Virus record (IMG/VR): IMGVR_UViG_3300006204_000001
Source: a virus
Taxonomy: Duplodnaviria > Heunggongvirae > Uroviricota > Caudoviricetes
DNA: 64,000 nt
Strand: one strand, 5' to 3'
Shown: positions 14,995 to 51,908 of the stretch, piece by piece
Layout of the letters: every line of letters starts with the position of its first letter
Numbering within the stretch: position 1 is the first letter of the stretch
The notes under the pieces: generated by a model
The model's database searches: none
What the model was told of the DNA's origin: nothing
The model's input: the letters and a program-made list of their open reading frames with translations, nothing else
Position numbers and translations under genes: made by a program

Positions 14995-15020
14995 TATGAT
15001 ATATTCTATTTATAAGACAT
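14995..15020 (+). promoter_or_regulatory. Putative early promoter
   Basis: tatgatatattctatttataagacat ahead of an accessory operon. Confidence 0.65.
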
Positions 15021-20910: not shown

Positions 20911-23520
20911 TTATCCTTCATATCCAGCTGGATATTTAATATCGATGATTGGTCTATCTGCTTTAGGTATTGGAGTTGCCATTATTTTTTTATAACATGC
21001 AAGAAGTTGTGTACGTATAGCTTCCAATTGGGGTTTTGTATGAGGTACTACATATTTATTACTTCCAACTTCTAATAATTCTATATACCATTCCACTATC
21101 TCTAATTTACCAAGACAATATGATGCAATCATCATTTTATCATTAGCATCTTTGATAGCTTCTGTCTCTATAGAAATATATGCTACTAAGTCTGATGGAA
21201 TCTTTTTTAATTTTTTAACAAAGAATTTTTCATACATTGCTTTTGTTTCTTTGTCTGCATTCATCATACCTTCATGATCAATATTCTCTGATATAAATTT
21301 AGATTCACTATCTTTGATTTTATCATTAAATTTATTATGATAATAATCATCAATAGCTTCTGATAAATATGATAATTCTCTCATATTATCAGAATCATCA
21401 CATGCTTCTCTTAAAGCTTTAACCATTTCTTTTACATCATCTACAATCTTTTTCTTTTCATTTTCAGGAGATGCATATTTAGAGTAAATACCTCTAATGA
21501 ATCTATTAATTGTATTAATATCCTCTTGTGATATTTTAAATGTATCCTTATTATCCATTTTTACATCATCGAATACAAATAATAACTTCATAGGATAAAT
21601 TACTAAACCTGATAATTTAGTTGTAGATACTAAATGTTTTAGATTATGATTCATTTTCATAATTTCACTAGTTAAGTGTTTAGCATATTTTTCTATTTTA
21701 GAATCATAATATTGAATAGCAGCTTTAAAGAAATTAAATGCATCATCAGGATTTTTCATTGTATGAAATATTCTAGGTGACATTTTAATTTTTATTTCTG
21801 GTATTCTATGTAAAAATGCATTAATTGGTTCTCTACCATCTACAAATCTAGCTATAAAATCTTGACTCATAGTAGGTATCTTAAATTCAAGAGTATTATA
21901 TGACTGATATGAATTCAATGTAATAGTAAACTTTTTAAATCCATTAGCCCATTTAGGTAACAGATTTTTTGTGATAATATTAGCATATATATTAGCCGTA
22001 TATTGACTCATCTTATATTTATTATCTTTAGTAGATGTCTTATTGATAATATCCTGTGATAACGTACGTAAAGTAGCTTTAGCTTGTTTCTCAGTCATGT
22101 CTGTATTATATTCTTTCTTATAATCAGGATTGGACTCAGGATCAACTGATTCTGTTATTTTATTGATATTATCACTAATAACGATCATATCTGCATGTTC
22201 ATATATATCATTTAATGATTCCCTAAATGATTCATAAAAATCATTTAAATTAAAATCAGATGTTGTAATTCCATTTAACATAGCTATCATATTATTCATT
22301 TTAGCATTTTCATAATATTCAGGATTTCTCTTTTTATCTTTCTTAGATGGATGATTATATACAATATCACCATTAGCTGCATCTCTTGAATTAATATCAT
22401 CCATTTTAGCCCCTCGGGCATATTTTAAATGTTCTATACCACTGATCATATCACTTGTTTTATCAACTACTTCACCTTCAAAATCAGTATAGCGAAGTTT
22501 ACCTTTAGGAAGTTTAGTTGTTTTAAATGATGAATTGTCATCAATTTCTCCAACTTTAACTACAGGGAATTCATCCTTTGAAACATTTTTTTCTATATAT
22601 GATTTATCTGATTTCGTCAATTCTAAATATTTAAATGAAGATCTAGCAGGTAAATAAAATAAACCTATAACTCTTGATTCTTTTAATCTTTCACCAGTTT
22701 TTCTATCTATGATAGCAAGAACTTTTTGTCCATGTGATGCATGATCAGGATCACCTTTTTTGTTTATAGTCTTTTTCACTTTATCTGTAGTTTCTTTAGA
22801 TGTTCTAAGTTCAATATTTTTTTCAGACTTTTTATGTCCATACTCTTTATTTTTATATGCACCACCAGCCATATCTATTTTGGCATCATCTAATGAATAT
22901 ACTATTTTGATTGCATGACCTGTATCATAATCAAAACCAAGTCTAAAATCATATTTTAATTTACTATGAGATTTTTCCAATAAATATTCTAATTCATCAA
23001 TATCATATGATTCATATAATTCTTTTGCTTCTTTATATATCCTTTCACGTCTATCAAAGAATAAATCCCATATTTCTTTAGATTCTTTATTTGATAAATA
23101 AATATCAAAACCTTCATATGATTCCCCATTACTAGATTCATTATCTAGTTTAACATCATATTTTTTTCTAATAATTCCTCTTACATTTTGGAATAAATCA
23201 TTTATTAATTCACTTAATAACGTTTCTATCCAACCATATTGATGATTAGTAAAATGACCTGTTACTTGAATCATACATTCATATTTTTTTCCATTCTTAT
23301 ATACTCTAACAGATCCACATTCAGTATTTCCTCCAGGTTTAGTACAAAAATCATCAATACATGACATAGCCCAACTAGAAGATTTTAAATCTGAATAAGA
23401 ATCTTTATCTATTAAACGATACATCTCATCTTTAATAATCTTATTTATATCAATAATCTTCTTTTGAATATTATCAGGTAAGTCTTTAAGATATCCATCT
23501 TTAACTTTACTTCTTTTCAT
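20911..23520 (-). CDS. Modular putative head protein carrying copy A of the repeated SHxxLKYxFR module
   Basis: 869 aa, immediately downstream of the capsid gene; many hydrophobic-x-E-S/A motifs; module at 22309..22977. Confidence 0.65.
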   Translation of the reverse strand: MKRSKVKDGYLKDLPDNIQKKIIDINKIIKDEMYRLIDKDSYSDLKSSSWAMSCIDDFCTKPGGNTECGSVRVYKNGKKYECMIQVTGHFTNHQYGWIETLLSELINDLFQNVRGIIRKKYDVKLDNESSNGESYEGFDIYLSNKESKEIWDLFFDRRERIYKEAKELYESYDIDELEYLLEKSHSKLKYDFRLGFDYDTGHAIKIVYSLDDAKIDMAGGAYKNKEYGHKKSEKNIELRTSKETTDKVKKTINKKGDPDHASHGQKVLAIIDRKTGERLKESRVIGLFYLPARSSFKYLELTKSDKSYIEKNVSKDEFPVVKVGEIDDNSSFKTTKLPKGKLRYTDFEGEVVDKTSDMISGIEHLKYARGAKMDDINSRDAANGDIVYNHPSKKDKKRNPEYYENAKMNNMIAMLNGITTSDFNLNDFYESFRESLNDIYEHADMIVISDNINKITESVDPESNPDYKKEYNTDMTEKQAKATLRTLSQDIINKTSTKDNKYKMSQYTANIYANIITKNLLPKWANGFKKFTITLNSYQSYNTLEFKIPTMSQDFIARFVDGREPINAFLHRIPEIKIKMSPRIFHTMKNPDDAFNFFKAAIQYYDSKIEKYAKHLTSEIMKMNHNLKHLVSTTKLSGLVIYPMKLLFVFDDVKMDNKDTFKISQEDINTINRFIRGIYSKYASPENEKKKIVDDVKEMVKALREACDDSDNMRELSYLSEAIDDYYHNKFNDKIKDSESKFISENIDHEGMMNADKETKAMYEKFFVKKLKKIPSDLVAYISIETEAIKDANDKMMIASYCLGKLEIVEWYIELLEVGSNKYVVPHTKPQLEAIRTQLLACYKKIMATPIPKADRPIIDIKYPAGYEG
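22305..22360 (-). repeat. 56 bp perfect repeat, copy 1 (inverted relative to 42842..42897)
   Basis: Minus strand reads atataatcatccatctaagaaagataaaaagagaaatcctgaatattatgaaaatg. Confidence 0.95.
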
Positions 23521-23658: not shown

Positions 23659-25497
23659 TTATGCTGCTGCCTTCCAAGGTGCACCTGTAATAGGAGGTCT
23701 AGAAGGAGCATCTCCATATACTTTATCAGAATTAAGAATAATAAGATCAGCCTGAATACCCTGAATACTCATTGTCTTAAATCTTGCTGTTGCAGTTACG
23801 ATATTATATGCACCTGCAGGAGCCTGAGGACTCTGATAAGCTGTCTGAGATTGAGAAGTAAACAGATGATTTGTATACTTCAAATGTCTATATGACACAT
23901 GATCAGGACTTGTAGGATATCCATAAATATGAAGTACAAGCTCTCTGTTATTTGTTTCATCAACTGGATCAATTGTATATGCATCATAAAGATTAGATGC
24001 AACTACTCTAATGTTAGCACCAAGATCAGAAGCAAAACCATATGATCCATTACACTTAATACCTCCAATAGAAGTTCCAGATGACTGCTTCCATTGAATA
24101 TACTCTGTAAGCAACTGTGTAGCCATTGGATTGCCAGTAATTACAAATGAAAGATCATCCAACTTTGTAAGTTCTGTTAACTGATAAATGATGGAACGAA
24201 GTCTAAACTGAATAGCTGAAGCTACATACTTAAACGGATCTCCAGCATAACCTGCAGGAGGCTTAATATCACATGTATAAGTCTGAGCCAATGATTCAAG
24301 TTTATACGTATCAGTTGTAACACCATTAAACTTAGCCTGTTCATCACATAAGAACTTGATAACTGTCATGCACTCTTCCATTTCCTGAGTCTTTGTAATC
24401 TCATCAACCATTCTATTGTAATAGTTGATATCAAGAAGAGCTGCAGCATCATCGATCTGCTCAATTGTGAATGGCATGTTCCAACGAGGACCATCCTCAA
24501 TAGTAAAACGAATAATATCACGTTTCTCTCTTACAGATACACTTCTAAGATTCTTCTCATTGGAAAGATATCCAGAGAATACTACACCAGTAACCTGTCC
24601 AGAAGTAGATGCAATACTTACTGTACCATTCTTGAAGTCTACACGTCCGCCAAGTTCATCTTCAACATGAGTTCCATTATAATCAAAATCAAGATTACCA
24701 TTTACAAATGTACCATTTGTCGAGAACTCAACTGTGATACCATTACCATTCAAAGGAATAGTCTCATCACCAACCTGAACTGCAATAATCTTAAACTGGA
24801 ATGATAACTGATCAAGACCTTTTGTACCATCTGTAAGATTAGTAATAATATCATATTTACTCAATCTTCCATTTACAAAAGGAACAACAACTTCTTTGAT
24901 CTTATGACCCTTAGCTGCATCATAAATCTTTTCCCATGTACCATCAAACATACACTTAGGATATTCATACTCATCGCCAGTATTGTTATCAATAAGATAT
25001 GTTGTTCTAATATGCTTAACGATATTAGGTGTCTTAACAGACTCAACCTCAATAATATCTTTAAGAATAGAACTAAAGAACTGTTTAACGAGTACAGGGA
25101 ATTCAAGTGTAGCAATTGGCAAAAATGCAGTAATAGCTGCAGACTCAGTATAATTCTTAACCTTTGTATCCCAGAAGTTGTTAACCTGATCAATTACATA
25201 CTCAATATGAGGATCATTTTCTGATGTTTGACGATAAGCCTCAAATACAGGTTCCAATAGAGCTTCCTTATATCCATTCATGAATTCTCTATCAGAGATC
25301 ATCTTGGTGATATCTCTCTTAATATCGATTCCTCTTTCTTTATAGCCTTCACAAATTGAACTAAAATGATCATCGAATGACTGTACATTTCCATCTGCAC
25401 TTTTAGCATTAAAAGCAGATGCTGAAGTTACAGGATTTTCTTTTCTTGATGCTTCACTTGCTGATTCATAAAACCAGCTAACCTTATTTGTAGTCAT
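23659..25497 (-). CDS. Major capsid protein precursor
   Basis: 612 aa; N-terminal propeptide-like region ending YTE/SAAITAFLP...FPVL; own upstream late motif and strong terminator; resembles phiKZ/AR9-type MCP. Confidence 0.75.
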   Translation of the reverse strand: MTTNKVSWFYESASEASRKENPVTSASAFNAKSADGNVQSFDDHFSSICEGYKERGIDIKRDITKMISDREFMNGYKEALLEPVFEAYRQTSENDPHIEYVIDQVNNFWDTKVKNYTESAAITAFLPIATLEFPVLVKQFFSSILKDIIEVESVKTPNIVKHIRTTYLIDNNTGDEYEYPKCMFDGTWEKIYDAAKGHKIKEVVVPFVNGRLSKYDIITNLTDGTKGLDQLSFQFKIIAVQVGDETIPLNGNGITVEFSTNGTFVNGNLDFDYNGTHVEDELGGRVDFKNGTVSIASTSGQVTGVVFSGYLSNEKNLRSVSVREKRDIIRFTIEDGPRWNMPFTIEQIDDAAALLDINYYNRMVDEITKTQEMEECMTVIKFLCDEQAKFNGVTTDTYKLESLAQTYTCDIKPPAGYAGDPFKYVASAIQFRLRSIIYQLTELTKLDDLSFVITGNPMATQLLTEYIQWKQSSGTSIGGIKCNGSYGFASDLGANIRVVASNLYDAYTIDPVDETNNRELVLHIYGYPTSPDHVSYRHLKYTNHLFTSQSQTAYQSPQAPAGAYNIVTATARFKTMSIQGIQADLIILNSDKVYGDAPSRPPITGAPWKAAA

Positions 25498-25569
25498 GAT
25501 TAAATCTCTCCTTTTCTAAAATAATTTTTTTGGTCCACAATGTTGTGAATTTTTAACATATGGTTATTA

Positions 25570-25581
25570 TATTACTATGTT
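25570..25581 (-). promoter_or_regulatory. Putative late promoter AACA-N6-TA
   Basis: AACATAGTAATA upstream of capsid gene. Confidence 0.5.
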
Positions 25582-26206: not shown

Positions 26207-29086
26207 TTAAATTATTTGACCTTTTCGCCATGCTTTATTTGATGCTGGTCCAGATATTCTATAAAGTTTTTGACTTATTTGATTCTTTAAACGTGTTAAT
26301 TGAGATACTGCTTTAATATCACCTTTTCCTTCAGCATGAGCAATCTTCTTTTCTATGATCTCAATTTCAGTTTTAATTTCCCCGATCATTTCATGTCTAA
26401 GTTGTTCCATTTGATTTTTATTCTTTGATTTTCTTGCTATAGAAAATCCTAAAAAGAATGGATTGAGTAGTAAACCAGCTTTCAAATATGCTCCTGTTTT
26501 AATACACCAATTAACTGCACTTAAAAGATTACTTCTTGCTGCAGGATCAGCTATCTTTTCTTTTATTTTTGTCTCATCTGTGTCTTTCCAATCCTGGATT
26601 GTTTTCATAACCCAACCTTGTGTTTTTCTAATTGGTTTTATAGCTGCTCTACCAGCATTTTGTACATTTTGAACTGTTCTTTTTGCAGATTGTTGAGCTT
26701 TAGTAGTAGCACGATCAATATCAGTTAAAGCATCTTTTACAGGATGATCAGATTCAGGTTTATTATCATCTGCATCTCCAACTTTCTCAGTTACATAATT
26801 CTTCCTAAATCTATCAAAAAAACCTTCTGTAAATGGTTGATTTGGTAATATATTCATTTTATATGGTATTACAATAGATTCATTATGTTCTTTAGATGAA
26901 TGATCGTCTTTAATGTTTTTATCAGTAGAATTATCAATATTATGTACTGAATGGTTATCATGTCTGCTATTATTGATATTATGGACAGAATGATTGTCAT
27001 GCTTACTATTATCATTGTCTCTATTAAAAGAATTAGTATTCTTATTCATAGAATTATTGTATGTATAATAGTAATAATTATTAGTAGAAGAGTGATCCTC
27101 TTTATCAGAAGAAGATACTCCTAATTCATCTGATACATCATCATAGTGATCATTTTCATCTTTGTTTGCAGATGGTCTACTAAAATCTTCTAAAGATTTA
27201 TTTTCATTATCTGTATCATCATTCTTTTTATCAGGGCTATCAATTTCTCCATAGCTTAAATCATGATTACCTCCGAGATATGTAGGAGCTTTACCTGTAT
27301 ATTTATCAGTCGTATTTGATAATCTATATGATTCATTAATATTATCATCATTTATAGGATCTGCTGATTTTACTAATGTACCATCCTCATTCAATAAACC
27401 ATCAAATTCTTCATATAAAGAATATACTTCATCTTGTAACTTAAATGCTTCTTCTGTTGATTCAGCACATACAATCTGATATTCTTTTAATTCAATAAGA
27501 TCTTTTATATTGTCTATATCTTCTTCTGTATATTCTAAGAATCCTTCTGTATTACCTGTAATCATTGATTCTCTAAATATAGACATATTATTATCCTGCA
27601 TTATTTTTACATGAGCTGATAATGAATTTGATTCTATAATTTGAAAATTCTTGTTATCTAACAAATTAGAATCATATTTGCAACATTCAACTATTAATTG
27701 AGATACATGAGGATCATTATAAATCCTACTAAAGTATTCTAAAACTAAATTAATAGTATTATTACCTAATTGATTTGCAGTAATAATAATATCAGGTATA
27801 GCTACTTCTTCATATTTTTCTGTTAAACCTACTAGAAAAGTTCTACCTTGTTTAGAATTATCATTCAATGAATAATAATCTTCAATATATTCTTCCGCAG
27901 ATTCTTTCAACGAATGACGAGGATCTTTACGAGAAGCTCTTCCTCTTATAGTTACACCTTTTCCTTGCAATTTCTTTTTGAGAACTTTGATTTTATCATT
28001 ACATTCTTTTATTTTATTTTCATATTTTTTAATCTGTTGCTTAGTTTCTTCAATAATTCTCAAATGAGATTCACTATGATTATCATATTTTAATAAATCA
28101 TTAAGGTTATTTTTACATCTTTCAATATTGAATTCTGCACGTTCGATCTCACCCTCATAGAACTTTATATCACCACTAATAGCATAATCTTTAGGTTTCT
28201 CTCTTTTATTTTGAATTTGTTCACCACGTCCATCTCCATTATTTTCTTTTTTCGATATATCTTTTCGTATATCATATGTTATAGAATCATTTAATATATC
28301 ACGGGTTTCTTCATTTTTATGACGATAATTATCATATTTATTTTTTCTCATTGATGTTGATTTAAATGTCGGAACATTTTCTATATCACCAACTTTAATA
28401 TGAAATATATCTGAATCATTATATCCAAATATACCTGTAACATCTGCTTCTTGTAATCGTTTATTAGTTATAACATCAATTATAGCTAATACTTTTTGAC
28501 CAGATGATTTATGGTCAGTATTACCTTTACTACGTATTCTACTTAATTTTTCTTCTTTTGATAACCCTTTAAGTTTTTTATAAGATGTATGATGTGCAAA
28601 ACTGGGATCTTCATCTAATATCATATTATCTAATGAATATACAATTTTCAATGGATGATCTGTTTCTACATCTGTGACCATTCTAAAATCATATTTCAAC
28701 TTACCATGTGATTTTTCCATGAATGATCCATTTGTTATAATTTCATACATATTAAAACATTCTTTGAATGATCTCTTATATTTCTCCAATTCTTCTAAAT
28801 GTTTCCTATAATTAGAAGGATCTTTCTTTTGTGATTCACATTTTTTAATACAATTTTCAAAACATGAAATAACATCATCATATACTGCAACAGATACACC
28901 ATATTTTTCTACAAAGGTTTCCCATGTTTCTAATCCTATACTAGATTCAATGATATATTTTAGATTAGAAATATAACTTGCAGGATTGGTGTTTAATATT
29001 TCATTGATACATTCTGAATATGTATCGATGTCAGATTGTCTTCCACTACTTTTAGCAATGGAGTATAACGATTTAATATCTTTCAT
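26207..29086 (-). CDS. Modular putative head protein carrying copy B of the repeated module
   Basis: 959 aa; module starts at SFME-KSHGKLKYDFR (28717); many hydrophobic-x-E motifs; helical C-terminus. Confidence 0.65.
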   Translation of the reverse strand: MKDIKSLYSIAKSSGRQSDIDTYSECINEILNTNPASYISNLKYIIESSIGLETWETFVEKYGVSVAVYDDVISCFENCIKKCESQKKDPSNYRKHLEELEKYKRSFKECFNMYEIITNGSFMEKSHGKLKYDFRMVTDVETDHPLKIVYSLDNMILDEDPSFAHHTSYKKLKGLSKEEKLSRIRSKGNTDHKSSGQKVLAIIDVITNKRLQEADVTGIFGYNDSDIFHIKVGDIENVPTFKSTSMRKNKYDNYRHKNEETRDILNDSITYDIRKDISKKENNGDGRGEQIQNKREKPKDYAISGDIKFYEGEIERAEFNIERCKNNLNDLLKYDNHSESHLRIIEETKQQIKKYENKIKECNDKIKVLKKKLQGKGVTIRGRASRKDPRHSLKESAEEYIEDYYSLNDNSKQGRTFLVGLTEKYEEVAIPDIIITANQLGNNTINLVLEYFSRIYNDPHVSQLIVECCKYDSNLLDNKNFQIIESNSLSAHVKIMQDNNMSIFRESMITGNTEGFLEYTEEDIDNIKDLIELKEYQIVCAESTEEAFKLQDEVYSLYEEFDGLLNEDGTLVKSADPINDDNINESYRLSNTTDKYTGKAPTYLGGNHDLSYGEIDSPDKKNDDTDNENKSLEDFSRPSANKDENDHYDDVSDELGVSSSDKEDHSSTNNYYYYTYNNSMNKNTNSFNRDNDNSKHDNHSVHNINNSRHDNHSVHNIDNSTDKNIKDDHSSKEHNESIVIPYKMNILPNQPFTEGFFDRFRKNYVTEKVGDADDNKPESDHPVKDALTDIDRATTKAQQSAKRTVQNVQNAGRAAIKPIRKTQGWVMKTIQDWKDTDETKIKEKIADPAARSNLLSAVNWCIKTGAYLKAGLLLNPFFLGFSIARKSKNKNQMEQLRHEMIGEIKTEIEIIEKKIAHAEGKGDIKAVSQLTRLKNQISQKLYRISGPASNKAWRKGQII
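26928..27010 (-). repeat. Two tandem 13-codon repeats (NS[KR]HDNHSVHNI[ND])
   Basis: Seen in translation of 26207..29086. Confidence 0.8.
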
Positions 29087-41383: not shown

Positions 41384-41414
41384 ATATTCACTCCATATTA
41401 AGTGGAGTGAATAT
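41384..41414 (+). terminator. Intrinsic terminator
   Basis: atattcactcca/tggagtgaatat followed by a T-run. Confidence 0.8.
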
Positions 41415-41441: not shown

Positions 41442-44400
41442 ATGAGTGAAATAAAAATTGATAATTCAATTAAAAATGCTATTACAAAAGGAAACTGGAA
41501 GGATCCAGGAGCAAAACTATATGATGATATTTTAAAAAATACAAATTGGAAGGATCTTTTAAAAGAAGCATATCTTGTTGCTCCAGTTAATGATATAACT
41601 AATGATCCAAGAGTACGTACGAGATTAAATAGTTCTGGATGTAAATATCCTCATCATCATATAAAGGATGGTAAACTTGTTGTATCAATTTCTGGATTGC
41701 GTTCTGCATATATATGTGCAAGAAATCAGGGTTATTTCAATAATGATTCAAATAATAGACCTGAATATAGTAGATCAGTAGTTACTCATTTGAATAGACA
41801 TTGTAAAGAGTTAGGAATTGAACCTATATGGCATCACGGTGAACTTTATTTTCAGGATATTAAATCAAAGAAATTTGTTGAATATACTGATATAAATGAA
41901 TTTAATGAAGATTCAGATGAAAAGTTATATAGAGTTACATTTAATGACATTGGTATTTATGAAGCTATGAGACAACATATGTCATTAGATAAATGGAGAG
42001 ATTTTTTAAAATCTGATAATGCTACATGGTTACCAAAACCAGATAAATATCCAGATGGATATACTTCATATTTCACTAAAGAAGGAATTGATAAATTTAA
42101 TGAATTAGTATATCCTATATCATGTGGAATTCTTGGAGATAATATTAAATATGAAGAATTTGATCAGGATGATATAGGAGATATTGTTTATAAAGATAAT
42201 TATCAAATAATAGCCGAATATAAAGAATTTAACGAAGCATCACATGGAAAATTAAAATATGATTTTAGAAAAGGTTATGATTGGAATTCTGGTCATGGAA
42301 TAAAGATTATATATTCATTAGATAATATTGAAATCACTAATATAGGAAAAGGATTTTCAACTGATGCTGATAAAGATAAAAATATAAAAGATATAGAAAA
42401 AAATATTAAAAATAAAGGTAATATGGATCATGTATCTAAAGGTCAAAAAGTATTAGCTATAATAGATAGAGTAACTGGAGAAAGACTTAATGAATGTGAT
42501 TATATTGGTCCATTTGCTCCAGCTATATCAAATCGTAATCTAGATTTATCTGATGATATAGATGATCTGCATGATTATTATAATTCTAAAGGTCCAGATT
42601 TTGTAAAGCGATATATTAATCATATTAAGGTAGGAGAAAATGATAATACTAGCGTATATAAATCTACTCATTGGTTCAAAAATGATATGAAGGAAGTAAA
42701 AGATAGATATGGATATATGGATAAAGTAGATAATACTATTGTAAGGGGAACTAAAGCAGAAGCTCTTAAATATGGAAGAGGAGCTAAAATGAATGATATT
42801 GATAATAATGATGCTTTAGGTATGGTAGGATCATTTCCAAAATATAATCATCCATCTAAGAAAGATAAAAAGAGAAATCCTGAATATTATGAAAATGAAG
42901 AATTTACAGAAAAATCGCATTCTAATTTGAAATATGCTTTTAGAATGGCTGTAAATCCTCATAATGGCCATTTTATAAAAATCGTATTTGATTTAGATTC
43001 AGATAAAGTATTACAAATAGGAGATCATACTCAACAATCTGGAAGAAATAAAGAAAAAGATGAAGAAACAAGAAAGAATATAAGAAAAAATGGATCTAAT
43101 GATTTTTCTTCTATTGGACTAGTTAAAGGTATTCAAGATTTAGATACTAAAGAGCAACTTAAATCAGTAGATACTCTTGGTGTTATTGGAGCTAGTAATC
43201 AAACTAGGTTTAGTGTTCCAGAAGAATTAAGAGATAAGCGTTTAGGAGATGAGCAATATAATATGTTTTCATATCCATTAAAGGATAGAGAAAAAATTAT
43301 TAAAACATTAAATCTTGATAATGCTAAAGATATAATAAAATTTACAGTTGGAGAAGTTGAAAAGGTTCCAAGTTATAAAGCTACATTATTATCTAAATCA
43401 ATATCTGGTGTATATCATAATCAGTTTAATCCGAAAGGAAGAGGAGATCAGAGTAAAAGTAAAAGTTATGATCAAAGTGTATATGCAGGATTGAAATCTT
43501 TAAAGTCAAGATACAAAAAAGTTCATGATGTATTAAAGGATAATGATTATTATGAAGACGATTTTGATTATATTGAGAAATTATTAAATAAATTAGAAGA
43601 AGATGTTGATAAACATAGTGATGAAAAATATGGTCAAAGTACAATGCATCCAAGATATAGCAGAAGATATAGTAACATAGACAGTTCTATTAGCGAACTT
43701 GAAGTTGAAATAAAAAATATGAAAAAGAAAAAAGATAGTAAGGTAGATAAACAAATCAATGAAAATTTCAATATTATGTACACTATAATTCAGGAACAAA
43801 CAGGAGCTAATTTATTTGATGATAACTTTGAAATATTTGAAGAGTCTGATAAAATAGATATAGTAAAGGAAATTAATTACTGTATGGATATGTTAAATAA
43901 AACAGGAGATGAGAAATGGTTAAATAAATTTAAATTAGCTCAAAAGAAATTGATAAATGAATCATATGCAGAATCATCTGATATCAAAAAAAACGATGAA
44001 TTTGTTCCAATATTTGGAATATTAAAGAAAACATCTTTAGATGATAAAAGAAATGATGGTTCTGAAAAAGATGAATATGATAAGGAAATGAGTAAATTTC
44101 AAAAACAAATTAGTACTCTTACATTCGGAGATAATTATGCTCATGCATTAATATCTTTTGATGATAAGTTTAATCATCTATATTCTTTTGGTGATGAAGG
44201 AATTGAGGATGACAGTATATATTTAGATAGTTGGATGGCTACGGATTCTATCTATATCTGTGTAATGTTTGTTACAAAAGATGAAAGAGATAAGATGAAA
44301 ATATATGTGGATGATATACTTGCTCATCCAGAAAAAACATCATATGCATTTTCTAATTTATTAAAAGCATATATAAGTAAACCTGCGAAGATAGATAAAC

Positions 44401-44717
44401 GATTTGTTTGTTCTACATTCACTGGATTTATTATGAGCTGTGCAAATCCTAAAAATTTAAATAGAGATTATTCCAGATTAAGACCAGAAGATATTACTAT
44501 ATTACCTAGAGCATTTTATGTAATGAATATCAAAGATAGAGAAGAATTCATTAATAGAAGAAGTGAATTAATAAATAGAGTGAAAGCTATTTATGATGAA
44601 TACCATGAAGAATTAGAAGATTATAATAATCATTTACCTAAATTATTATTGAAAGATAGAGTAGATAAATTAAAAACTTCTGATAAAATACTTGATTGGA
44701 TAATTAGTAAATTATAA
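41442..44717 (+). CDS. Polyvalent putative head polyprotein: KYPHH domain, WLPKP domain, repeated module copies C and D, C-terminal permuted papain-like (NlpC/P60-type) domain
   Basis: ATG 41442 after AAAGGAG; His-before-Cys order YAHALISFD...LYSF...FVCSTF...RPEDI. Confidence 0.7.
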   Translation: MSEIKIDNSIKNAITKGNWKDPGAKLYDDILKNTNWKDLLKEAYLVAPVNDITNDPRVRTRLNSSGCKYPHHHIKDGKLVVSISGLRSAYICARNQGYFNNDSNNRPEYSRSVVTHLNRHCKELGIEPIWHHGELYFQDIKSKKFVEYTDINEFNEDSDEKLYRVTFNDIGIYEAMRQHMSLDKWRDFLKSDNATWLPKPDKYPDGYTSYFTKEGIDKFNELVYPISCGILGDNIKYEEFDQDDIGDIVYKDNYQIIAEYKEFNEASHGKLKYDFRKGYDWNSGHGIKIIYSLDNIEITNIGKGFSTDADKDKNIKDIEKNIKNKGNMDHVSKGQKVLAIIDRVTGERLNECDYIGPFAPAISNRNLDLSDDIDDLHDYYNSKGPDFVKRYINHIKVGENDNTSVYKSTHWFKNDMKEVKDRYGYMDKVDNTIVRGTKAEALKYGRGAKMNDIDNNDALGMVGSFPKYNHPSKKDKKRNPEYYENEEFTEKSHSNLKYAFRMAVNPHNGHFIKIVFDLDSDKVLQIGDHTQQSGRNKEKDEETRKNIRKNGSNDFSSIGLVKGIQDLDTKEQLKSVDTLGVIGASNQTRFSVPEELRDKRLGDEQYNMFSYPLKDREKIIKTLNLDNAKDIIKFTVGEVEKVPSYKATLLSKSISGVYHNQFNPKGRGDQSKSKSYDQSVYAGLKSLKSRYKKVHDVLKDNDYYEDDFDYIEKLLNKLEEDVDKHSDEKYGQSTMHPRYSRRYSNIDSSISELEVEIKNMKKKKDSKVDKQINENFNIMYTIIQEQTGANLFDDNFEIFEESDKIDIVKEINYCMDMLNKTGDEKWLNKFKLAQKKLINESYAESSDIKKNDEFVPIFGILKKTSLDDKRNDGSEKDEYDKEMSKFQKQISTLTFGDNYAHALISFDDKFNHLYSFGDEGIEDDSIYLDSWMATDSIYICVMFVTKDERDKMKIYVDDILAHPEKTSYAFSNLLKAYISKPAKIDKRFVCSTFTGFIMSCANPKNLNRDYSRLRPEDITILPRAFYVMNIKDREEFINRRSELINRVKAIYDEYHEELEDYNNHLPKLLLKDRVDKLKTSDKILDWIISKL
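42842..42897 (+). repeat. 56 bp perfect repeat, copy 2
   Basis: Identical to reverse complement of 22305..22360. Confidence 0.95.
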
Positions 44718-44739: not shown

Positions 44740-47700
44740 ATGGATAATTATATGGAAAATAATATATTCATAGAATCTAATGAAGATATTGGAATCAATT
44801 ATAAAAATTATGTACCATTGATTCAACAATCAAAAAGATTCTTATCAATTATTGAAGATAGTATAGAAGAATTATTAAAAGATCCTTTTATTCCAATTGA
44901 TTTAAGAGATGAAATAAGTCAATTTAAAGAAGATATTAATAATACTAATAAAAATCCTTATGATATCATTATTAGTGATATTCCAAAATTGAAAATAAAA
45001 ATAAATAAGTCTAGGCATGAAATGACTAATATTTTACAAAGAATGAGTAATATTAAAAAGGATATTGCTTTCGGAGGTGATTTTATTCATGGTATCCTAA
45101 TGAAAAGTAAAGTATATTCTAAAGACATTAATGAAGAAAAATATAATATAGGATCTATGAATATTAGAAATATTACTAGAGCATTTGACTGGTTAGAAAA
45201 AGTTGTTATTGATTTATTTAATATGATAGATCAAGATTTAAATGTCCTTACAATTGTGCATGAATTATATGGTAAAAATAAAATTTATGAATCTACTAAT
45301 AATGTATTAGAAAACCATGATACAGTATTAACATCTGAAATATTCAAAGAGACTGGAACTACTCCTAGAGAAATATATAATTGGATGAGTAAAAATATTT
45401 CATATGATAAAACTATTAAGGGATGGAAACTACGAGATGCTGCTAAATTGTATAAAGATAAGAAAGGTAATTGTCATGACCAATCTTATTTTACTACATT
45501 ACAATTGCATTCATTAGGATATGTTACAGGTCAAATATTTTTTGTTGAATGTGCAATGGCTGCAGATAATCCTGATGGTAATGCCCATACTACTACATGG
45601 TATAAAGAAGATGGAAAATTTTATTGGCTAGAAACAGCATGGAAAAAATTTAATGGTATCCATGGTCCATTTGATAATATGGATGACTTAAAGAAAGAAA
45701 TTATAGATTCATATAATCATGATTCCGATATTAACTCTCATAATCCTAAATATAAAACATTAGCTATGGGAGATATATCTAATTATAGAATAGGAATGAA
45801 TTTACATAGATACGTAGTATCATGGAAGTATTTGAAAGAAGTACAAGTATTAGATGATAAAAAGAAATCTGTAAAATTTAATGAATCAATGACTATAGAA
45901 GATCAAATAAAAGTGTCTATAAATAATATAGAATCCATTGTATTATATAATGAATCCAATGATACATCATATGATATGATATCTACACCTGAAGAATTAT
46001 TGAATTGGATGGATTGTATTCAATACGGATGGATATCAAAAGTAGATGGAAAAATATATGGTACTTCTGAAGAAGATGATGAAAATATATTCTTCAGAGA
46101 GTATTATTTGCAATCGCCAAATCAATTGATTAATTCAAAAATTGGTGTATGTTGGGACCAGGCTGAATTGGAAAGAAAATGGTTCAGTGATCATAATATA
46201 GATTGTACTGTTATCTATATCATGATTAATGATAATAAAAATTGTCCAACTCATACATTTCTTGTATATGAAACAGAAGATGGATATTATAAATGGTTTG
46301 AACATTCATGGGGGCAATATAAAGGTATTCATTCATATACATCTTTAAAGGATTTATTAATGAATGTTATATCAAAACATCAAGAATGTAATAATGATAC
46401 TGAATCTCCTATTATAATCAATAATATTTGTATAACACCTAAGTTTGGATCTAGTTGTAATGAGTTCATGGATTTTTGTGCTAATTGTAAAAGTATTGAT
46501 TTGAATGATGTTGGTAATGAAATATTTAGTGAATCAGTATTATTAGAATTGGAAGAATCATTTAATGAATTTAAATCATTAATTGATGAATCATATTATT
46601 ACAATGAATCTGTCTCAAATAATACCATTAAAGATTTTAAAAAGAGATGGAAATACGATGAAAAAACTCAAACTATTGAATATGAAAAAAGAAGGTTCAA
46701 AGTTGATTTTAATCCTGATATTGATATAAGTGAAAAATATGCTTTATGTGTTGTAAAAAGACGTGGTCAAGAGGCTGTTATTTCTATTAGTGATAGAATA
46801 TGGAAATTTGATGCAGATTCTCAAGATGTATTAGTACTTCATGAAATAGGTCATATTGTATATCAATTATCAGAAAGACCATTTCCAAAATCAATAAGAG
46901 AATTAATTGAAAGAATTAAAAAAGCTATTCAAAGGTTAGTTGCTAGAATAAAGATGAGAAAATATACAAAAGGAGTTCATGGAAATGGATATTGGGAAAT
47001 AGAAGCAGATATGTATGCAGCTAATAGATCATCACCAGAAAATATGAAAAGATCATTATCAAATTTTTATAATTATGAAATATTACATGAATTAGAAAAA
47101 AATCTTGATAATGATCTTAATAATTCTAATATCAAAAAGAAATATGATGAATTGAAAAATATTAATTCTATATCTATGTCATATGAAGATTATAAAAAAG
47201 AAATGATTAAAGCCCTTGCAAGAAAAAAATATGAAGAAATAATGAAAAATCCTAATAACGTAGTAGTTCGTGATTTGAATCAAAGGATAAAAGCTTTATC
47301 AGATAATAAACTTGTAAATAGTAAATACTTTAAAAAAGAATCATATGATCCACCATTTTCATATGATCAATTACCAGAGCATTTAAAGAATGATCCAGTT
47401 CATAAATGGAGAGCTGAAACTGGTATAGAATTAATTCATAAAGAATCTGTATATATAGATATAGCTTCATTACCAGATAGATTATATTTTGCTTCACCAA
47501 ATAAAATTGAAGGTTCAATAACTCCTATGACAGATAGAGGATTATTTATGACTCCATTTCAAGGTATAGCTTCCCTATTTATCATTGATAGACATAGAAT
47601 AATGAAAGATTATATCAGAGATAGTATAGCTCCATTAATATGCATAGGTAATCAATATAATCTTGAATATAGTGAATGGAAATTAGAGAATGATATATTA

Positions 47701-49197
47701 ATAACTCCTTTAACTTCAGCACATATTAATCATAATATTCCATGTCTTACTAATATGATAGAAGGTGAGTCAATCGGTTACATTCATGAAATAGATATTT
47801 CATCTATAAAAGATGAACTTCAATATTTTGTATCTAAGGATGCTAATAGAGAAGTTATTTATAAAGGAAATAAATCATTACCAATCACAAATATTATTGA
47901 ACACAAAATTCATTATAATTTGGGATATGAGAAAGACGAATGGGATGGAAGTATAAATATTTTATTTGATGGAAAACCAATAAAAGTTTCTACTGAAGAA
48001 GAATTAAACAATTTAAAAAATAATTCATCTATAGTAGAATCGTTTGATGCCATGATAACTAATAAATTATATTTTGCAACCACTAAAGAATTATCATCAG
48101 AGACCATATCAGTTAAATATCCTAGAGCTTTAATATTATATCAAACCATAAGAAGTGCATCTTTGCATGGTATTAATAAAGATATATTAGCAAAGAAATA
48201 TTTTGAAGATATTTTAGCCAAAAATAATAAAGAAATATATAAATCTAAATATACTACAATGTATGCTCCCATAGATCCATCTAGTGATAAAACAAAAGTA
48301 TTATCACATATTCATATATATCATGATGTCCCTTCATATACTGAAATTGGATCAGGAGAAGAAACTATATATGTATATGAAGTAGATGTATCTGAAATAC
48401 AATATGAATTATCTTTTATTAAAGATGGATGGTTGTATCAAGGAACTTCTAAATTACCTATTAAAAAATTAGGTAATAGTACTATTAATTGGGATATTAC
48501 TTATAGTAATAAAATTGGTACTACTGGAAGTATAGAGATAAAAGATAATGCAAAAGGACGTATGATAGAATGTGGTATAGTGGATGAAACAGGATTAACT
48601 GGAACTGATATGGTATGGTTAGAAAAGTTTCTTGAAGAAGAAGGATTAAAAATTTATTCTGAATCAGAATTGAAATATACTGATACTACAAAACCAATTA
48701 AAAAAGAATCTATGCCTAAACAAATAGATGAGGTTGAATCTGATAAAAATGGTATTAGAAGAAAAAAATTATATATGAAATTTATTGAATGGGCTAAGGA
48801 GTATAATCCGCGTAATACTTTTGGATCACTTTTTGATAAAGATGTTTTTCATATAACATATTCCTTTATACCAGAAGAAATGAGATATTTCTATAGATTA
48901 GCAAATCCTCTATTATGTGTTTTATCGGGTGATTTAACTTTCTTTCAAGCATCTGAATTAAGGAAATTAAATTCAGAAAATAAAGAAATAGATAAGTTAT
49001 TAATATTTGCAGCTACAGAAAATGATATGCGAATATTTAATAAAAATGATAAGAAAATATATAAAGGTATAGAAGAAAATAAAAAAATAATATTAAAGGA
49101 GCCATTAGCAGATACGTTTGATTTATACATACAGAATATGATTAAATGTGGGGATATATTAAATGGTCCTGTAGATGATATTAAGAAAGGAGAATAA
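44740..49197 (+). CDS. Polyvalent putative head polyprotein: two transglutaminase-like domains, HExxH zincin, two ART-like domains, C-terminal SMI1/KNR4 (SUKH)-like domain
   Basis: GNCHDQ..HT..WLE; GVCWDQ..HT..WFE; LHEIGH..EIEAD; RLYFAS..GLFMT..YIHEID..EVIY; IPEEMRYFY..LIFA..LADTFDLYI. Confidence 0.7.
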   Translation: MDNYMENNIFIESNEDIGINYKNYVPLIQQSKRFLSIIEDSIEELLKDPFIPIDLRDEISQFKEDINNTNKNPYDIIISDIPKLKIKINKSRHEMTNILQRMSNIKKDIAFGGDFIHGILMKSKVYSKDINEEKYNIGSMNIRNITRAFDWLEKVVIDLFNMIDQDLNVLTIVHELYGKNKIYESTNNVLENHDTVLTSEIFKETGTTPREIYNWMSKNISYDKTIKGWKLRDAAKLYKDKKGNCHDQSYFTTLQLHSLGYVTGQIFFVECAMAADNPDGNAHTTTWYKEDGKFYWLETAWKKFNGIHGPFDNMDDLKKEIIDSYNHDSDINSHNPKYKTLAMGDISNYRIGMNLHRYVVSWKYLKEVQVLDDKKKSVKFNESMTIEDQIKVSINNIESIVLYNESNDTSYDMISTPEELLNWMDCIQYGWISKVDGKIYGTSEEDDENIFFREYYLQSPNQLINSKIGVCWDQAELERKWFSDHNIDCTVIYIMINDNKNCPTHTFLVYETEDGYYKWFEHSWGQYKGIHSYTSLKDLLMNVISKHQECNNDTESPIIINNICITPKFGSSCNEFMDFCANCKSIDLNDVGNEIFSESVLLELEESFNEFKSLIDESYYYNESVSNNTIKDFKKRWKYDEKTQTIEYEKRRFKVDFNPDIDISEKYALCVVKRRGQEAVISISDRIWKFDADSQDVLVLHEIGHIVYQLSERPFPKSIRELIERIKKAIQRLVARIKMRKYTKGVHGNGYWEIEADMYAANRSSPENMKRSLSNFYNYEILHELEKNLDNDLNNSNIKKKYDELKNINSISMSYEDYKKEMIKALARKKYEEIMKNPNNVVVRDLNQRIKALSDNKLVNSKYFKKESYDPPFSYDQLPEHLKNDPVHKWRAETGIELIHKESVYIDIASLPDRLYFASPNKIEGSITPMTDRGLFMTPFQGIASLFIIDRHRIMKDYIRDSIAPLICIGNQYNLEYSEWKLENDILITPLTSAHINHNIPCLTNMIEGESIGYIHEIDISSIKDELQYFVSKDANREVIYKGNKSLPITNIIEHKIHYNLGYEKDEWDGSINILFDGKPIKVSTEEELNNLKNNSSIVESFDAMITNKLYFATTKELSSETISVKYPRALILYQTIRSASLHGINKDILAKKYFEDILAKNNKEIYKSKYTTMYAPIDPSSDKTKVLSHIHIYHDVPSYTEIGSGEETIYVYEVDVSEIQYELSFIKDGWLYQGTSKLPIKKLGNSTINWDITYSNKIGTTGSIEIKDNAKGRMIECGIVDETGLTGTDMVWLEKFLEEEGLKIYSESELKYTDTTKPIKKESMPKQIDEVESDKNGIRRKKLYMKFIEWAKEYNPRNTFGSLFDKDVFHITYSFIPEEMRYFYRLANPLLCVLSGDLTFFQASELRKLNSENKEIDKLLIFAATENDMRIFNKNDKKIYKGIEENKKIILKEPLADTFDLYIQNMIKCGDILNGPVDDIKKGE

Positions 49198-49335: not shown

Positions 49336-49361
49336 AAAAGGAGGATTAAAATCCTCCTTTT
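49336..49361 (+). terminator. Intrinsic terminator
   Basis: aaaaggaggatt/aatcctcctttt. Confidence 0.8.
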
Positions 49362-49461: not shown

Positions 49462-49575
49462 ATGAATGATACACATAATATACGTAACTATTGTTATTCT
49501 AAAGATCAAAACTTGAAATACAGAAGTTTTGTTTCAATATTTTATGTTTCATTTATATGGAGTATAAAAATATAA
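49462..49575 (+). CDS. Possible 37 aa peptide (MNDTHNIRNYCYSKDQNLKYRSFVSIFYVSFIWSIKI)
   Basis: GGAGA RBS; lies between promoter motif and terminator. Confidence 0.35.
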   Translation: MNDTHNIRNYCYSKDQNLKYRSFVSIFYVSFIWSIKI

Positions 49576-49598
49576 TAGGCCCATATGGGCCTATTATA
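49571..49598. terminator. Bidirectional palindromic terminator
   Basis: tataataggcccatatgggcctattata perfect palindrome. Confidence 0.75.
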
Positions 49599-49613: not shown

Positions 49614-51908
49614 TTAACGAGTTACAACTCCTGCTAATGGAACCCATCCAGGTGCCTTATTACCATAACCAAAATTTGGATCATTCTTATATCCTTCATT
49701 ATATACAAATGATACTCCTGTAGCTACATTTATATACAATACTTGATTTGTTACATCTATTTCTTTACATACAGATGATTCAGGATCTACTCTATAATCA
49801 GTAAATTTTTGATCTGGTCTTGGATCTCTTTGATCCTTATGAATATAAAGTTGAGATAAAGCATTAGGATTATTTGTTTCTACACCATCTGGATTACGAG
49901 CAATATTATCAAGCATACTATCCAATGTAAATTTATAATAATTATTGAAATTATTAGTATCATAATTAGAGAATAATAATGCCTTTATATCGCATGGTCT
50001 TTCTACACCCATAGGTCCTTGATCAACCCATTCACCAGTAAACACTTGTATTCCGTCTTTAATTACCCATGTAGGATTTTGTGTATTAATTACATATCTA
50101 AATAGATGTACATGTACTCCAGCTGTTGCATTGCCTCCATGTTCATAAAATGCTACTGATGATGTATTAGGATTAGGTATTGGACCACCTCTACCAGAAT
50201 TAATTCCACTATATGCTGGACCTGCAGCTGTTGATCTAATATTAATTATCCCTCCTTGAGTATCAGGAGTATTTACATCTGACCATAATGATTCATTATC
50301 GGATCTTACAGATGGTGTAATATCAACATATGCATATAGATTATTTTTTATCTGTGTAGCATTACATTCTATAGTAGCTTTACATGATACAGATAATAAT
50401 GCACCATGACCAACTCCACTCATATTTGAGAATGGTAATCCTACTCCATGTGTACTTGGATCTTGTTCGAAAACCCTTTCTTTTTCTATTATATATTCAC
50501 CTGATTGAATTTGTCCATTGGATCCAACTGTCTTTACAATATAAATGAACACATCATCACCAAAAGACCATCTTAATTTATCACCAATTTCATATTGTAA
50601 TCCTGATTCAACAATGTTAATTTTTATATTTTCAGAATAATATTTAATAGATACTCTATTATATCTCCATTGATATAATTGACCACGTTGAAATGGTTGA
50701 TTTGTTGTGTTTAATTTTGCAAATGGAACAGGTTCACTATTTTCAATAACAATTTCCATATTAACTGGATTTAATGGTTGAGCAAGATAAGAATCATTGT
50801 ATGTATATCTATCAAACCAATTTGGTGACCATTTACCATCAAATGAATAATAAAATATGTGTCGTTTAGCTCCAGGTGTTTCATTATGTATCATAGGAGT
50901 CATAGTTTGATTAACTAAATCCACTCTATTCAATTCATCTAATGATCTAAATATACCTGGTAAATATCCTGCTTCATGTTTAACACCACAAAAATCTTGA
51001 TTAGCTCCATATGAATTAATTGGTTCACCCAGACGATCACCTTTTCTACCTAATTCTAAATCAACTCCTAAATCAGGTTGTTTGTTATATTGATCATTAC
51101 CATCACATTCACCATAATTCGGTTCACCTTTTAATCCTATCCTTTTATTGGTTATAAAGTCACCACCATTCTTATCACGCGATATTTCAGGATAAACGAA
51201 AGTACGATCATCAAGATTATCTAACATATATCTATTAGAATTAGTAAAATTATTATCAGTATGACGATAATCTGGATCAGATACAAAGTCAAGATCATTC
51301 ATTAATTGTGTTATTCTTGTAGGTATATCCCCTATTCTTGCTACTGTTCTTTCAGGTAATCTATCTTTGATTTGTCTTGTCTCATTGTTAACATAATTAG
51401 GATCATCATTACTATATAAATATGCTCTACCGTCATATGGATCGAACACCATTCCTGCCATTCTATTATCTGTTTTAGTAACCATATCATGATCATTAGA
51501 TAATCCATATCCTTCTTTTTCTGGTATAGTTGCATTAGCTCCTATATAAGTTCTATTTACTACTGTACTAATAGAATCAGAAGACATAGATTTATCCCAT
51601 TCTTCTATGTTATGAGGTAAACCAAATACTCCACTATCATTAGTTATACCTGCATAACCATGATATGCATTATTATCTGGAAATGTACGGATTTCCATTC
51701 TTTGGTAAATACCTCTATTATGTAATTCACCTGTATATTTATATAGCAATTGATTATCATAAAAATCAGTATCGGTATTAGGTTTTAAATTCCATCTCAA
51801 TCTTTCCTGACGTAACATTTGTCTTATACCATCAGGATTTAAATAACGTAATATTTCTTCTGGTGTTGTTCCTATCTCTTCACCACTTGGAAGAATTGAT
51901 TTTCCCAT
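49614..51908 (-). CDS. Putative virion structural (tail/baseplate-associated) protein
   Basis: 764 aa, G/N/P-rich, preceded by AACA-N6-TA motif. Confidence 0.5.
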   Translation of the reverse strand: MGKSILPSGEEIGTTPEEILRYLNPDGIRQMLRQERLRWNLKPNTDTDFYDNQLLYKYTGELHNRGIYQRMEIRTFPDNNAYHGYAGITNDSGVFGLPHNIEEWDKSMSSDSISTVVNRTYIGANATIPEKEGYGLSNDHDMVTKTDNRMAGMVFDPYDGRAYLYSNDDPNYVNNETRQIKDRLPERTVARIGDIPTRITQLMNDLDFVSDPDYRHTDNNFTNSNRYMLDNLDDRTFVYPEISRDKNGGDFITNKRIGLKGEPNYGECDGNDQYNKQPDLGVDLELGRKGDRLGEPINSYGANQDFCGVKHEAGYLPGIFRSLDELNRVDLVNQTMTPMIHNETPGAKRHIFYYSFDGKWSPNWFDRYTYNDSYLAQPLNPVNMEIVIENSEPVPFAKLNTTNQPFQRGQLYQWRYNRVSIKYYSENIKINIVESGLQYEIGDKLRWSFGDDVFIYIVKTVGSNGQIQSGEYIIEKERVFEQDPSTHGVGLPFSNMSGVGHGALLSVSCKATIECNATQIKNNLYAYVDITPSVRSDNESLWSDVNTPDTQGGIINIRSTAAGPAYSGINSGRGGPIPNPNTSSVAFYEHGGNATAGVHVHLFRYVINTQNPTWVIKDGIQVFTGEWVDQGPMGVERPCDIKALLFSNYDTNNFNNYYKFTLDSMLDNIARNPDGVETNNPNALSQLYIHKDQRDPRPDQKFTDYRVDPESSVCKEIDVTNQVLYINVATGVSFVYNEGYKNDPNFGYGNKAPGWVPLAGVVTR

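Follow-up and report, generated by a model that had tools for sequence, protein, structure and literature searches.

A mosaic multi-enzyme protein of a gut jumbo phage with candidate prohead-protease sites at its module joints

The DNA considered here is a stretch of 64,000 nucleotides (the window, from whose first letter positions are counted) that corresponds to bases 16512-80511 of the 289,059-bp IMG/VR record IMGVR_UViG_3300006204_000001. The record is a jumbo phage genome with direct terminal repeats, judged complete, with a GC content of about 27%. It belongs to a gut jumbo myovirus whose portal protein is distantly akin to those of PBS1/AR9 and of Staphylococcus jumbo phages, and which also carries genes for a tail sheath, a large terminase subunit, a major capsid protein and an RNA polymerase beta-subunit. 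An earlier reading of the letters (the original prediction) had proposed that one open reading frame (ORF) in the window, termed P0001, encodes a polyprotein of enzyme cassettes separated by x-x-E-S junctions, which would be cut into many separate effectors in the capsid. A single ORF of 1485 amino acids (aa) is indeed present at 44740..49197 on the plus strand, and together with a partner gene it forms a two-gene unit (41442..44717 and 44740..49197) bracketed by terminator-like hairpins. The features of the unit are as follows, with a slash marking candidate cleavage positions.

41384..41414 (+): terminator-like hairpin directly before the two-gene unit
41442..44717 (+): partner gene, 22 nt upstream of P0001, with N-module B, two KYDFR cassettes and a C-terminal His...Cys domain (C-Y)
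44740..49197 (+): P0001, whole ORF, 1485 aa, with a good ribosome-binding site, TATGGAGGT, just upstream
44740..44775 (+): N-terminal leader, 12 aa, ending IFIE/S; IF[TV]E/S in all class-A relatives and in the in-genome paralog
44776..45291 (+): N-module A, aa 13-184 (172 aa), helical, ending K-I-Y-E/S; terminal K-I-[YF]-E conserved
45292..45885 (+): transglutaminase-like domain 1, aa 185-382; Cys245 and His283 conserved
45886..45954 (+): linker with three E/S sites (E382, E398, E405)
45955..46533 (+): transglutaminase-like domain 2, aa 406-598, ending GNEIFSE/S; Cys471, His505 and Glu521 conserved
46534..46608 (+): linker with E/S at 598, 606, 617 and 623
46609..47340 (+): zincin-like metallopeptidase, aa 624-867, ending FKKE/S; HEIGH at aa 701, EIEAD about 50 aa downstream
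47341..47445 (+): 35-aa remnant, aa 868-902, part of a module of about 75 aa that usually precedes the domain of predicted ADP-ribosyltransferase (ART) fold
47446..48039 (+): LYFA domain 1, aa 903-1100, predicted ART fold
48040..48663 (+): LYFA domain 2, aa 1101-1308, paralog of LYFA domain 1
48664..48738 (+): linker with E1308/S, E1323/S and E1333/S; E/SMPKQTDxAE/S conserved family-wide; low predicted local distance difference test (pLDDT) values in the model
48739..49194 (+): C-module, predicted SUKH (SMI1/KNR4) fold, the constant end of the family
49336..49361 (+): terminator-like hairpin after the P0001 ORF

The modules were defined by local alignments to relatives from a search of 5.8 billion proteins, which returned 100, one of them 99% identical and the remainder matching P0001 in parts only. 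These alignments limit N-module A to aa 1-184, the transglutaminase-like (TGase) domains to about 188-381 and 405-600, the zincin to about 606-867, the short piece to aa 868-902, the LYFA domains to about 905-1100 and 1105-1300, and the C-module, which is found in 98 of 99 relatives, to 1324-1480. The short piece had been described as a mini-cassette, and its string does stand at 47341, but it is not a complete cassette: it is the truncated first half of the module of about 75 aa, which in relatives runs on as ...IHKE-P[ST]xEELxRIWxNW. Searches of other collections returned little. PHROGs gave only a non-significant match for P0001 (phrog_35150, E 0.0085) and none for the gene upstream of P0001 or for two large genes that flank the capsid gene; NCBIfam gave nothing meaningful; the ESM Atlas yielded no usable match for the C-module or N-module A; and PDB sequence searches with the zincin and with N-module B returned noise only.

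The eight junction strings named in the original prediction (KIYES, KFNES, LYNES, YYNES, FKKES, IHKES, SIVES and IYSES) are all where they were reported, and the dipeptide ES is enriched, occurring 17 times in P0001 versus 9.3 expected (shuffle p 0.009). Across the proteome ES is not in excess (426 versus 409 expected), and P0001 is the top outlier. Coincidence of module borders with ES is likewise observed, in that 238 of 447 internal BLAST alignment ends lie no more than six residues from an ES, where random sites give 67 +/- 29 and none of 5000 trials reaches 238; among dipeptides with at least eight copies, ES ranks first for coincidence with homology breakpoints. Fourteen of the 17 ES fall in linkers, which amount to 13% of the chain (binomial 2e-10), and 14 of the 29 linker Glu residues precede Ser, compared with 4.1 +/- 1.7 on shuffling within the linkers, although the linker windows were drawn by eye and the alignment-end test is therefore the unbiased one. 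The ES sites at E555 and E1010 are intradomain, outside the linker windows, and Ser1011 lies in a conserved, confidently modelled LYFA stretch. The proposed x-x-E-S junction holds to the extent that Ser is preferred at P1', but Ser is not invariant there and the fuller motif is [FILMY]-x-E/S (phi-x-E/S below). At the codon level, all 17 Ser codons that follow Glu are TCN (TCT 7, TCA 7, TCC 2, TCG 1) and none is AGT, a codon used for 21 of the gene's 111 Ser residues, the chance of all-TCN junctions being about 0.03; every ES junction reads GA[AG]-TC in the DNA, and 16 of 17 read GAA-TC.

The same motif recurs through the family. In 91 non-redundant relatives ES is found 992 times versus 625 expected and is 2.7-fold concentrated at borders, where it is accompanied by F/I/L/M/Y at P3, Asn at P2 and Val at P2'. 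The longer phi-x-E-S is found 481 times versus 178 expected, and in the other proteins of the phage it is 1.17-fold over expectation; phi-x-D and phi-x-K have no border enrichment. N-module A ends K-I-[YF]-E in every carrier and is followed by S, Y, Q, N or D and by differing modules. The usual beginning of a TGase cassette lies after MNE/S, INE/S or FNE/S, and its usual end is INE/x.

Comparison of cassette order among the relatives, which the original prediction had called for, revealed 95 different orders in 101 proteins. The ends of the family are constant, with N-module A (IFTE/SNEDxG...) or B (KINNSK...GCKYPHH...) in front, the SUKH module or the His...Cys domain C-Y at the C-terminus, and variable cassettes between; the minimal members consist of N-module A plus SUKH (387 aa) or N-module B plus SUKH (380 aa). 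In the 101 proteins the cassettes counted were TGase (75), KYDFR (64), ART-fold (37), GNAT (33), the 75-aa module (31) and zincin (7), and precomputed Pfam lists of the relatives also show NUDIX, HAD, LRR and AAA domains. The SUKH module itself is a tight family of 173 clusters at 50% identity among 1.84 billion proteins and is nearly always C-terminal. The family gene occupies a conserved locus in relatives, and the tandem pair of a gene like 41442..44717 and one of the P0001 type is found again in relatives L012 and L015.

Other members of the superfamily are encoded in the same genome. The partner gene begins with N-module B (KIDNS...GCKYPHH), has joints of the form phi-x-E/[SA] (GIYE/A, EFNE/A, LINE/S and YAE/S), and ends in a domain with a conserved GDNYxHAL...RFxCS[ST] pattern whose order, His before Cys, suggests that it may adopt a permuted papain-like fold. 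A 457-aa paralog (G000:C1:10057-11430, plus strand; L007:10057-11430) has N-module A fused directly to the C-Y His...Cys domain, and its N-module A is 37% identical to aa 7-188 of P0001 and ends VLFE/N. The two large genes beside the capsid gene, at 20911..23520 (-) and 26207..29086 (-) of the window, likewise carry the KYDFR cassette, which begins right after YLLE/K in p869 and after SFME/K in p959.

The phage encodes a prohead protease of family S77 (the T4 gp21 and phiKZ gp175 type), which matches PF03420 at 29.9 bits against a cut-off of 27 and phrog_3014 at E 3e-24. The protease and the capsid protein are located as follows.

G000:C1:256123-256992: S77 prohead protease
23659..25497 (-): major capsid protein, with WFYE/S at aa 11 and NYTE/S at aa 118

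Five related phages of 168-292 kb were reached via alignment of the C-module (a related-locus search with the capsid protein alone returned no relative), and orthologs of both the protease and the capsid protein are present in all five. Among these orthologs both capsid sites, WFYE/SA and [NS]Y[TN]E/SA, are conserved, and the second falls exactly at the start of the capsid-profile match. Some 50 aa before its C-terminus the protease has a conserved LCE/[SA]F, which parallels the 64-residue C-terminal self-cleavage of gp245, the SPN3US protease (PMC10052503). Cleavage after Glu is a hallmark of S77 proteases (PMC10052503). The consensus of SPN3US gp245 is A-X-E, with cleavage behind the Glu and Ser as the favoured P1' residue; besides trimming itself at the C-terminus, the enzyme takes off N-terminal propeptides that are 111-254 residues long (PMC10052503). 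T4 gp21 cuts after Glu at sites such as LIE-9, which fits hydrophobic-x-Glu (PMC9026906). T4 packages Alt, an ART, and its internal proteins by means of a cleavable leader of 10 residues, and the 12-aa leader of P0001 resembles this capsid-targeting leader (PMC9026906). N-module A, which follows the leader, is a candidate propeptide or targeting domain.

It could be argued that the motif marks nothing that is cut, P0001 being a cytoplasmic, non-virion multi-domain enzyme whose E/S joints are flexible linkers, module caps or traces of cassette recombination. The linkers are richer than the whole chain in both Glu (14.7% versus 8.4%) and Ser (13.7% versus 7.5%), the uniform TCN codons give GA[AG]-TC at each junction, and the gene has a metabolic neighbourhood, all of which would suit such a protein. 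Shuffling within the linkers, however, leaves the observed 14 linker ES well above the 4.1 obtained; P3 is specifically hydrophobic and phi-x-D and phi-x-K fail to mark the borders; and the same motif stands at the start of the capsid core and in the tail of the protease. A DNA-level recombination signal at the junctions was considered and rejected, as the third base of the Ser codon is not constant and the common string GA[AG]-TC, at 5 nt, is too short an identity to guide recombination. An uncut cytoplasmic enzyme is regarded as distinctly unlikely.

Alternatively, P0001 might be packaged and trimmed only at its N-terminus, at E12 and/or E184, in the manner of the phiKZ and SPN3US ejection proteins, so that the string of enzymes is ejected as one polyvalent protein. 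Thirteen of the 14 mapped SPN3US cleavages remove N-terminal propeptides (PMC10052503), and the most strictly conserved sites in the P0001 family are those that such trimming would use, the leader end IF[TV]E/S and the module end KI[YF]E, the internal junction motifs being less uniform. The internal linkers nonetheless carry clusters of three to four phi-x-E/S sites each, the motif is enriched at internal borders throughout the family, and the clusters resemble the redundant cleavage sites of phiKZ propeptides (PMC9026906). Trimming confined to the N-terminus is considered unlikely.

The identity of the cassettes bears on what such a precursor might deliver. The two TGase domains are paralogs, as had been proposed (mutual E 4e-8), with Cys245 and Cys471 at the codons named. 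Pfam Transglut_core matches aa 208-268 (E 1.6e-7) and DUF553 matches aa 416-517 (E 4e-5), both above cut-off, and these matches together with a Cys-His pair in each domain place them in the transglutaminase-like superfamily (PF01841, PF04473). Among homologs the conserved residues are Cys245 (54/55), His283 (55/55), Cys471 (61/66), His505 (65/66) and Glu521 (65/66), and from these patterns both domains are active-looking. The HEIGH of the predicted zincin is at aa 701, with HE[IM]GH and E[IL]EAD conserved in seven homologs; its Pfam match is YgjP-like at E 0.0047 and 17.4 bits, below the cut-off of 26.

Relatedness of the two LYFA domains is confirmed (E 4e-13), but the Glu of the Y[IV][HY]E[IV]D motif by which they had been recognized is not conserved across the LYFA family. 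Structure models were made for LYFA 1 and for the C-module. The LYFA 1 model (pLDDT 94.8) was compared with 48,161 chains using VIA, and nearly all of the top 50 are ADP-ribosyltransferase-fold proteins, among them Tpt1 (9ld3, Z 7.6, root-mean-square deviation (rmsd) 3.8, 85 aa), diphtheria toxin (6.9), HopF (6.5) and Arr (6.4). Foldseek alone is weak for LYFA 1, and the single Z scores are middling, so the model-based assignment of an ART-type fold to the LYFA domains draws on the consistency of the match list. Judged by sequence pattern rather than structural superposition, strand 1 reads Y-F-x-S, which would put Phe at the place of the His or Arg of an H-Y-E or R-S-E catalytic signature, and the conserved Ser945 and R1037-E1038 could be its S and E; the conserved polar residues are S919, S945, D950, E979, H995, H998, N999, D1019, R1037 and E1038.

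A SUKH-like C-terminus had also been predicted, and modelling of the C-module supports a SUKH fold. The AlphaFold2 model has a pLDDT of 88.8 (the linker ahead of the SUKH domain being the part of low pLDDT), SUKH proteins fill the top 23 Foldseek rows (best E 2.8e-3), and VIA gives Z 9.5-10 to 3d5p, 2pag, 2prv (YobK), Knr4 and FBXO3 (rmsd 3.0-4.9 over 114-153 residues), with the next structural class at Z of about 6. No Pfam SUKH/SMI1_KNR4 family matches the C-module at E up to 5, and membership is therefore assigned at the level of the fold. One phage ORF thus holds two TGase domains, a zincin motif, a predicted ART fold and a predicted SUKH fold, which is the multi-domain make-up that characterizes polyvalent proteins.

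The precursor might also process itself, its junctions being cut, ahead of injection or later, by the zincin and/or the papain-fold TGase-like domains. Iyer et al. 2017 proposed that zincin-like metallopeptidases (MPTases) process polyvalent proteins (PMC5512222), and the HEIGH...EIEAD motif and the Cys-His pairs of P0001 are conserved. Against this, the zincin is found in only 7 of about 100 relatives, 20 have neither zincin nor TGase, and cleavage after Glu is the signature of S77 enzymes (PMC10052503). Motif enrichment is 2.69-fold in the 20 members that lack TGase and zincin cassettes, versus 2.71-fold. This constancy argues for a protease acting in trans rather than self-processing, and as a general mechanism self-processing was rejected; for P0001 we regard it as highly improbable.

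The reading that we favour, with confidence slightly above even, is that P0001 is an effector polyprotein packaged in the head and cut there by the prohead protease. By analogy with known S77 substrates, the 12-aa leader and the 172-aa N-module A would bring the precursor into the prohead, where the S77 serine protease would cut after Glu in exposed [FILMY]-x-E/S motifs clustered in the linkers. Cleavage would remove the N-module and free two transglutaminase/papain-fold thiol enzymes, a zincin peptidase, two domains of ART fold and a SUKH protein-binding domain, and the released pieces would be kept in the capsid and pass into the host along with the DNA. Packaging, cleavage and ejection, like the targets that each enzyme may have, are steps that we infer. 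The capsid processing into separate effectors envisaged by the original prediction is consistent with the presence of an S77 protease, the motif shared with its other candidate substrates, the enrichment that points to action in trans, and the leader followed by a propeptide-like module.

Several observations weigh against head packaging and cleavage at the joints. The E/S-rich composition of the linkers supplies part of the ES signal, and many enriched sites are homologous positions, so that the family ratios overstate the number of independent events. Offsets of phi-x-E around the ends of BLAST high-scoring segment pairs have a broad 1.6-fold rise and no sharp peak, the ends of these pairs being too fuzzy to give one. 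At the conserved C-module start, E/SMPKQTDxAE/S, the P1 Glu is sometimes L, V, D, Q, I or K, and the E902/S junction reads E/P in relatives. The neighbours of P0001 are mainly genes of nucleotide metabolism and replication. Neither of two upstream elements found in this genome, TATATATTCTAATAATGTAA and AACA-N6-TA, precedes the operon, and the search for an expression class gave none for it. Finally, tblastn and megablast against 50,697 cultured or deposited phage genomes gave no match to P0001 or its locus, and for want of a homolog in a cultured phage the presence of P0001 in virions is argued by analogy.

The two elements were noted as follows. The motif TATATATTCTAATAATGTAA, strong and AT-rich, stands about 55 nt upstream of about 30 genes and is probably one promoter class; the 8-mer TATATTCT occurs 25 times genome-wide versus 3 expected. 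Within the window TATATATTCTAATAATGTAA is found at 15000, 18593, 30951, 33840 (-), 33889 and 37360. Neither the genes for capsid, portal, sheath and protease nor the P0001 operon have it upstream. The capsid gene and the gene for a virion protein (phrog_23804) have a near-identical 5' leader, AAAAAATTATTTTAGAAAAGGAGAGAT, with an AACA-N6-TA element, of the kind that occurs in AR9 late promoters, further upstream; the element is present before these two genes and absent before the P0001 operon. The leaders lie at:

25498..25580 (-) of the window: 5' leader of the capsid gene
G000:C1:251570-251691: 5' leader of the phrog_23804 gene

Two further observations concern the surroundings. A perfect palindromic hairpin with a 12-bp stem, TATAATAGGCCC ATAT GGGCCTATTATA, is located at 49571..49598 of the window, between the convergent genes 44740-49197 (+) and 49614-51908 (-), and has a terminator score on both strands. 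Elsewhere in the genome (G000:C1:266276-269527, plus strand) is a gene for an NrdD-like anaerobic ribonucleotide reductase of 1083 aa, in which NrdD profile matches at aa 2-396 and 761-1083 are separated by an insert of about 365 aa that is weakly helicase-like and may be an intein or an inserted domain.

A broader proposal, which is tentative and which we hold to be somewhat doubtful, is that this clade of gut jumbo phages runs a plug-in effector system. In such a system a constant chassis of the propeptide-like N-module A or B plus SUKH would accept any enzyme cassette between universal phi-x-E/S joints, the capsid-maturation protease would double as polyprotein processor, and the head would be filled with separate effectors in varying combination (thiol enzymes, zincin, ART-fold, GNAT, NUDIX and others). 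If the joints are real cleavage sites, the free exchange of effectors, with 95 orders in 101 proteins, would be explained, and the capsid protease would gain a second job, that of releasing from one gene a customisable cocktail of enzymes for host takeover or anti-defence. Genuine cleavage at the joints would also allow the proteins packaged by uncultured jumbo phages to be predicted from a simple rule on sequence. If true, the plug-in system would be the tailed-phage counterpart of RNA-virus polyproteins and polymorphic toxin loci. Unstudied domains of the family are an ART-fold domain that apparently lacks the usual catalytic signature, a SUKH domain specific to phages and two N-terminal modules.

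P0001 appears to combine two known kinds of protein, the polyvalent proteins (PMC5512222) and the ejection proteins processed by a prohead protease. With the former it shares several unrelated enzymatic domains per polypeptide (peptidases and ART, with GNAT or NUDIX in relatives), extensive cassette mosaicism and a zincin MPTase-like module, and for polyvalent proteins, too, delivery with the DNA has been proposed (PMC5512222). It differs in that the text of that paper is without SUKH or transglutaminase, both of which the P0001 family has; in that processing was proposed there via embedded MPTase or assemblin-like domains, whereas the joints of P0001 are Glu/Ser and match the S77 prohead protease; and in that the P0001 family has constant modules at both ends (PMC5512222). 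The comparison with the S77 substrates of T4 (Alt and IPI-III) and of phiKZ and SPN3US (ejection and inner-body proteins) begins with the protease, which is of the same family in the phage of P0001. The candidate sites of P0001 share Glu at P1 with the known ones and, as in SPN3US, a preference for Ser at P1' (PMC10052503), and P0001 resembles the known substrates in its short N-terminal leader ending phi-x-E and its long propeptide-like N-module with paralogs in the genome (PMC9026906, PMC10052503). T4 Alt is an ART cargo, as the predicted ART-fold domains of P0001 would be (PMC9026906). The hydrophobic P3 of P0001 is as in T4 and not A/S/G as in phiKZ and SPN3US, and whereas the known S77 substrates are single-cargo and end-trimmed, the P0001 family strings together up to seven modules with candidate sites at every joint.

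Polymorphic toxins such as Rhs and CdiA likewise have a constant part, in their case for trafficking, hypervariable enzymatic cassettes and short conserved junction motifs, and the predicted SUKH fold of the C-module is that of their immunity proteins such as YobK (2prv). Polymorphic toxins have swappable toxin ends, however, whereas in the P0001 family both ends are constant and the middle is variable; their SUKH protein is encoded by a separate immunity gene, whereas that of P0001 is fused in cis at the C-terminus; and the setting of P0001 is a lytic jumbo phage. With RNA-virus polyproteins P0001 shares a single ORF that encodes several enzymes joined by short protease recognition sites, which in P0001 are candidate sites, but it comes from a double-stranded DNA tailed phage, and its candidate protease, an enzyme of capsid maturation, comes from a separate locus of the genome.

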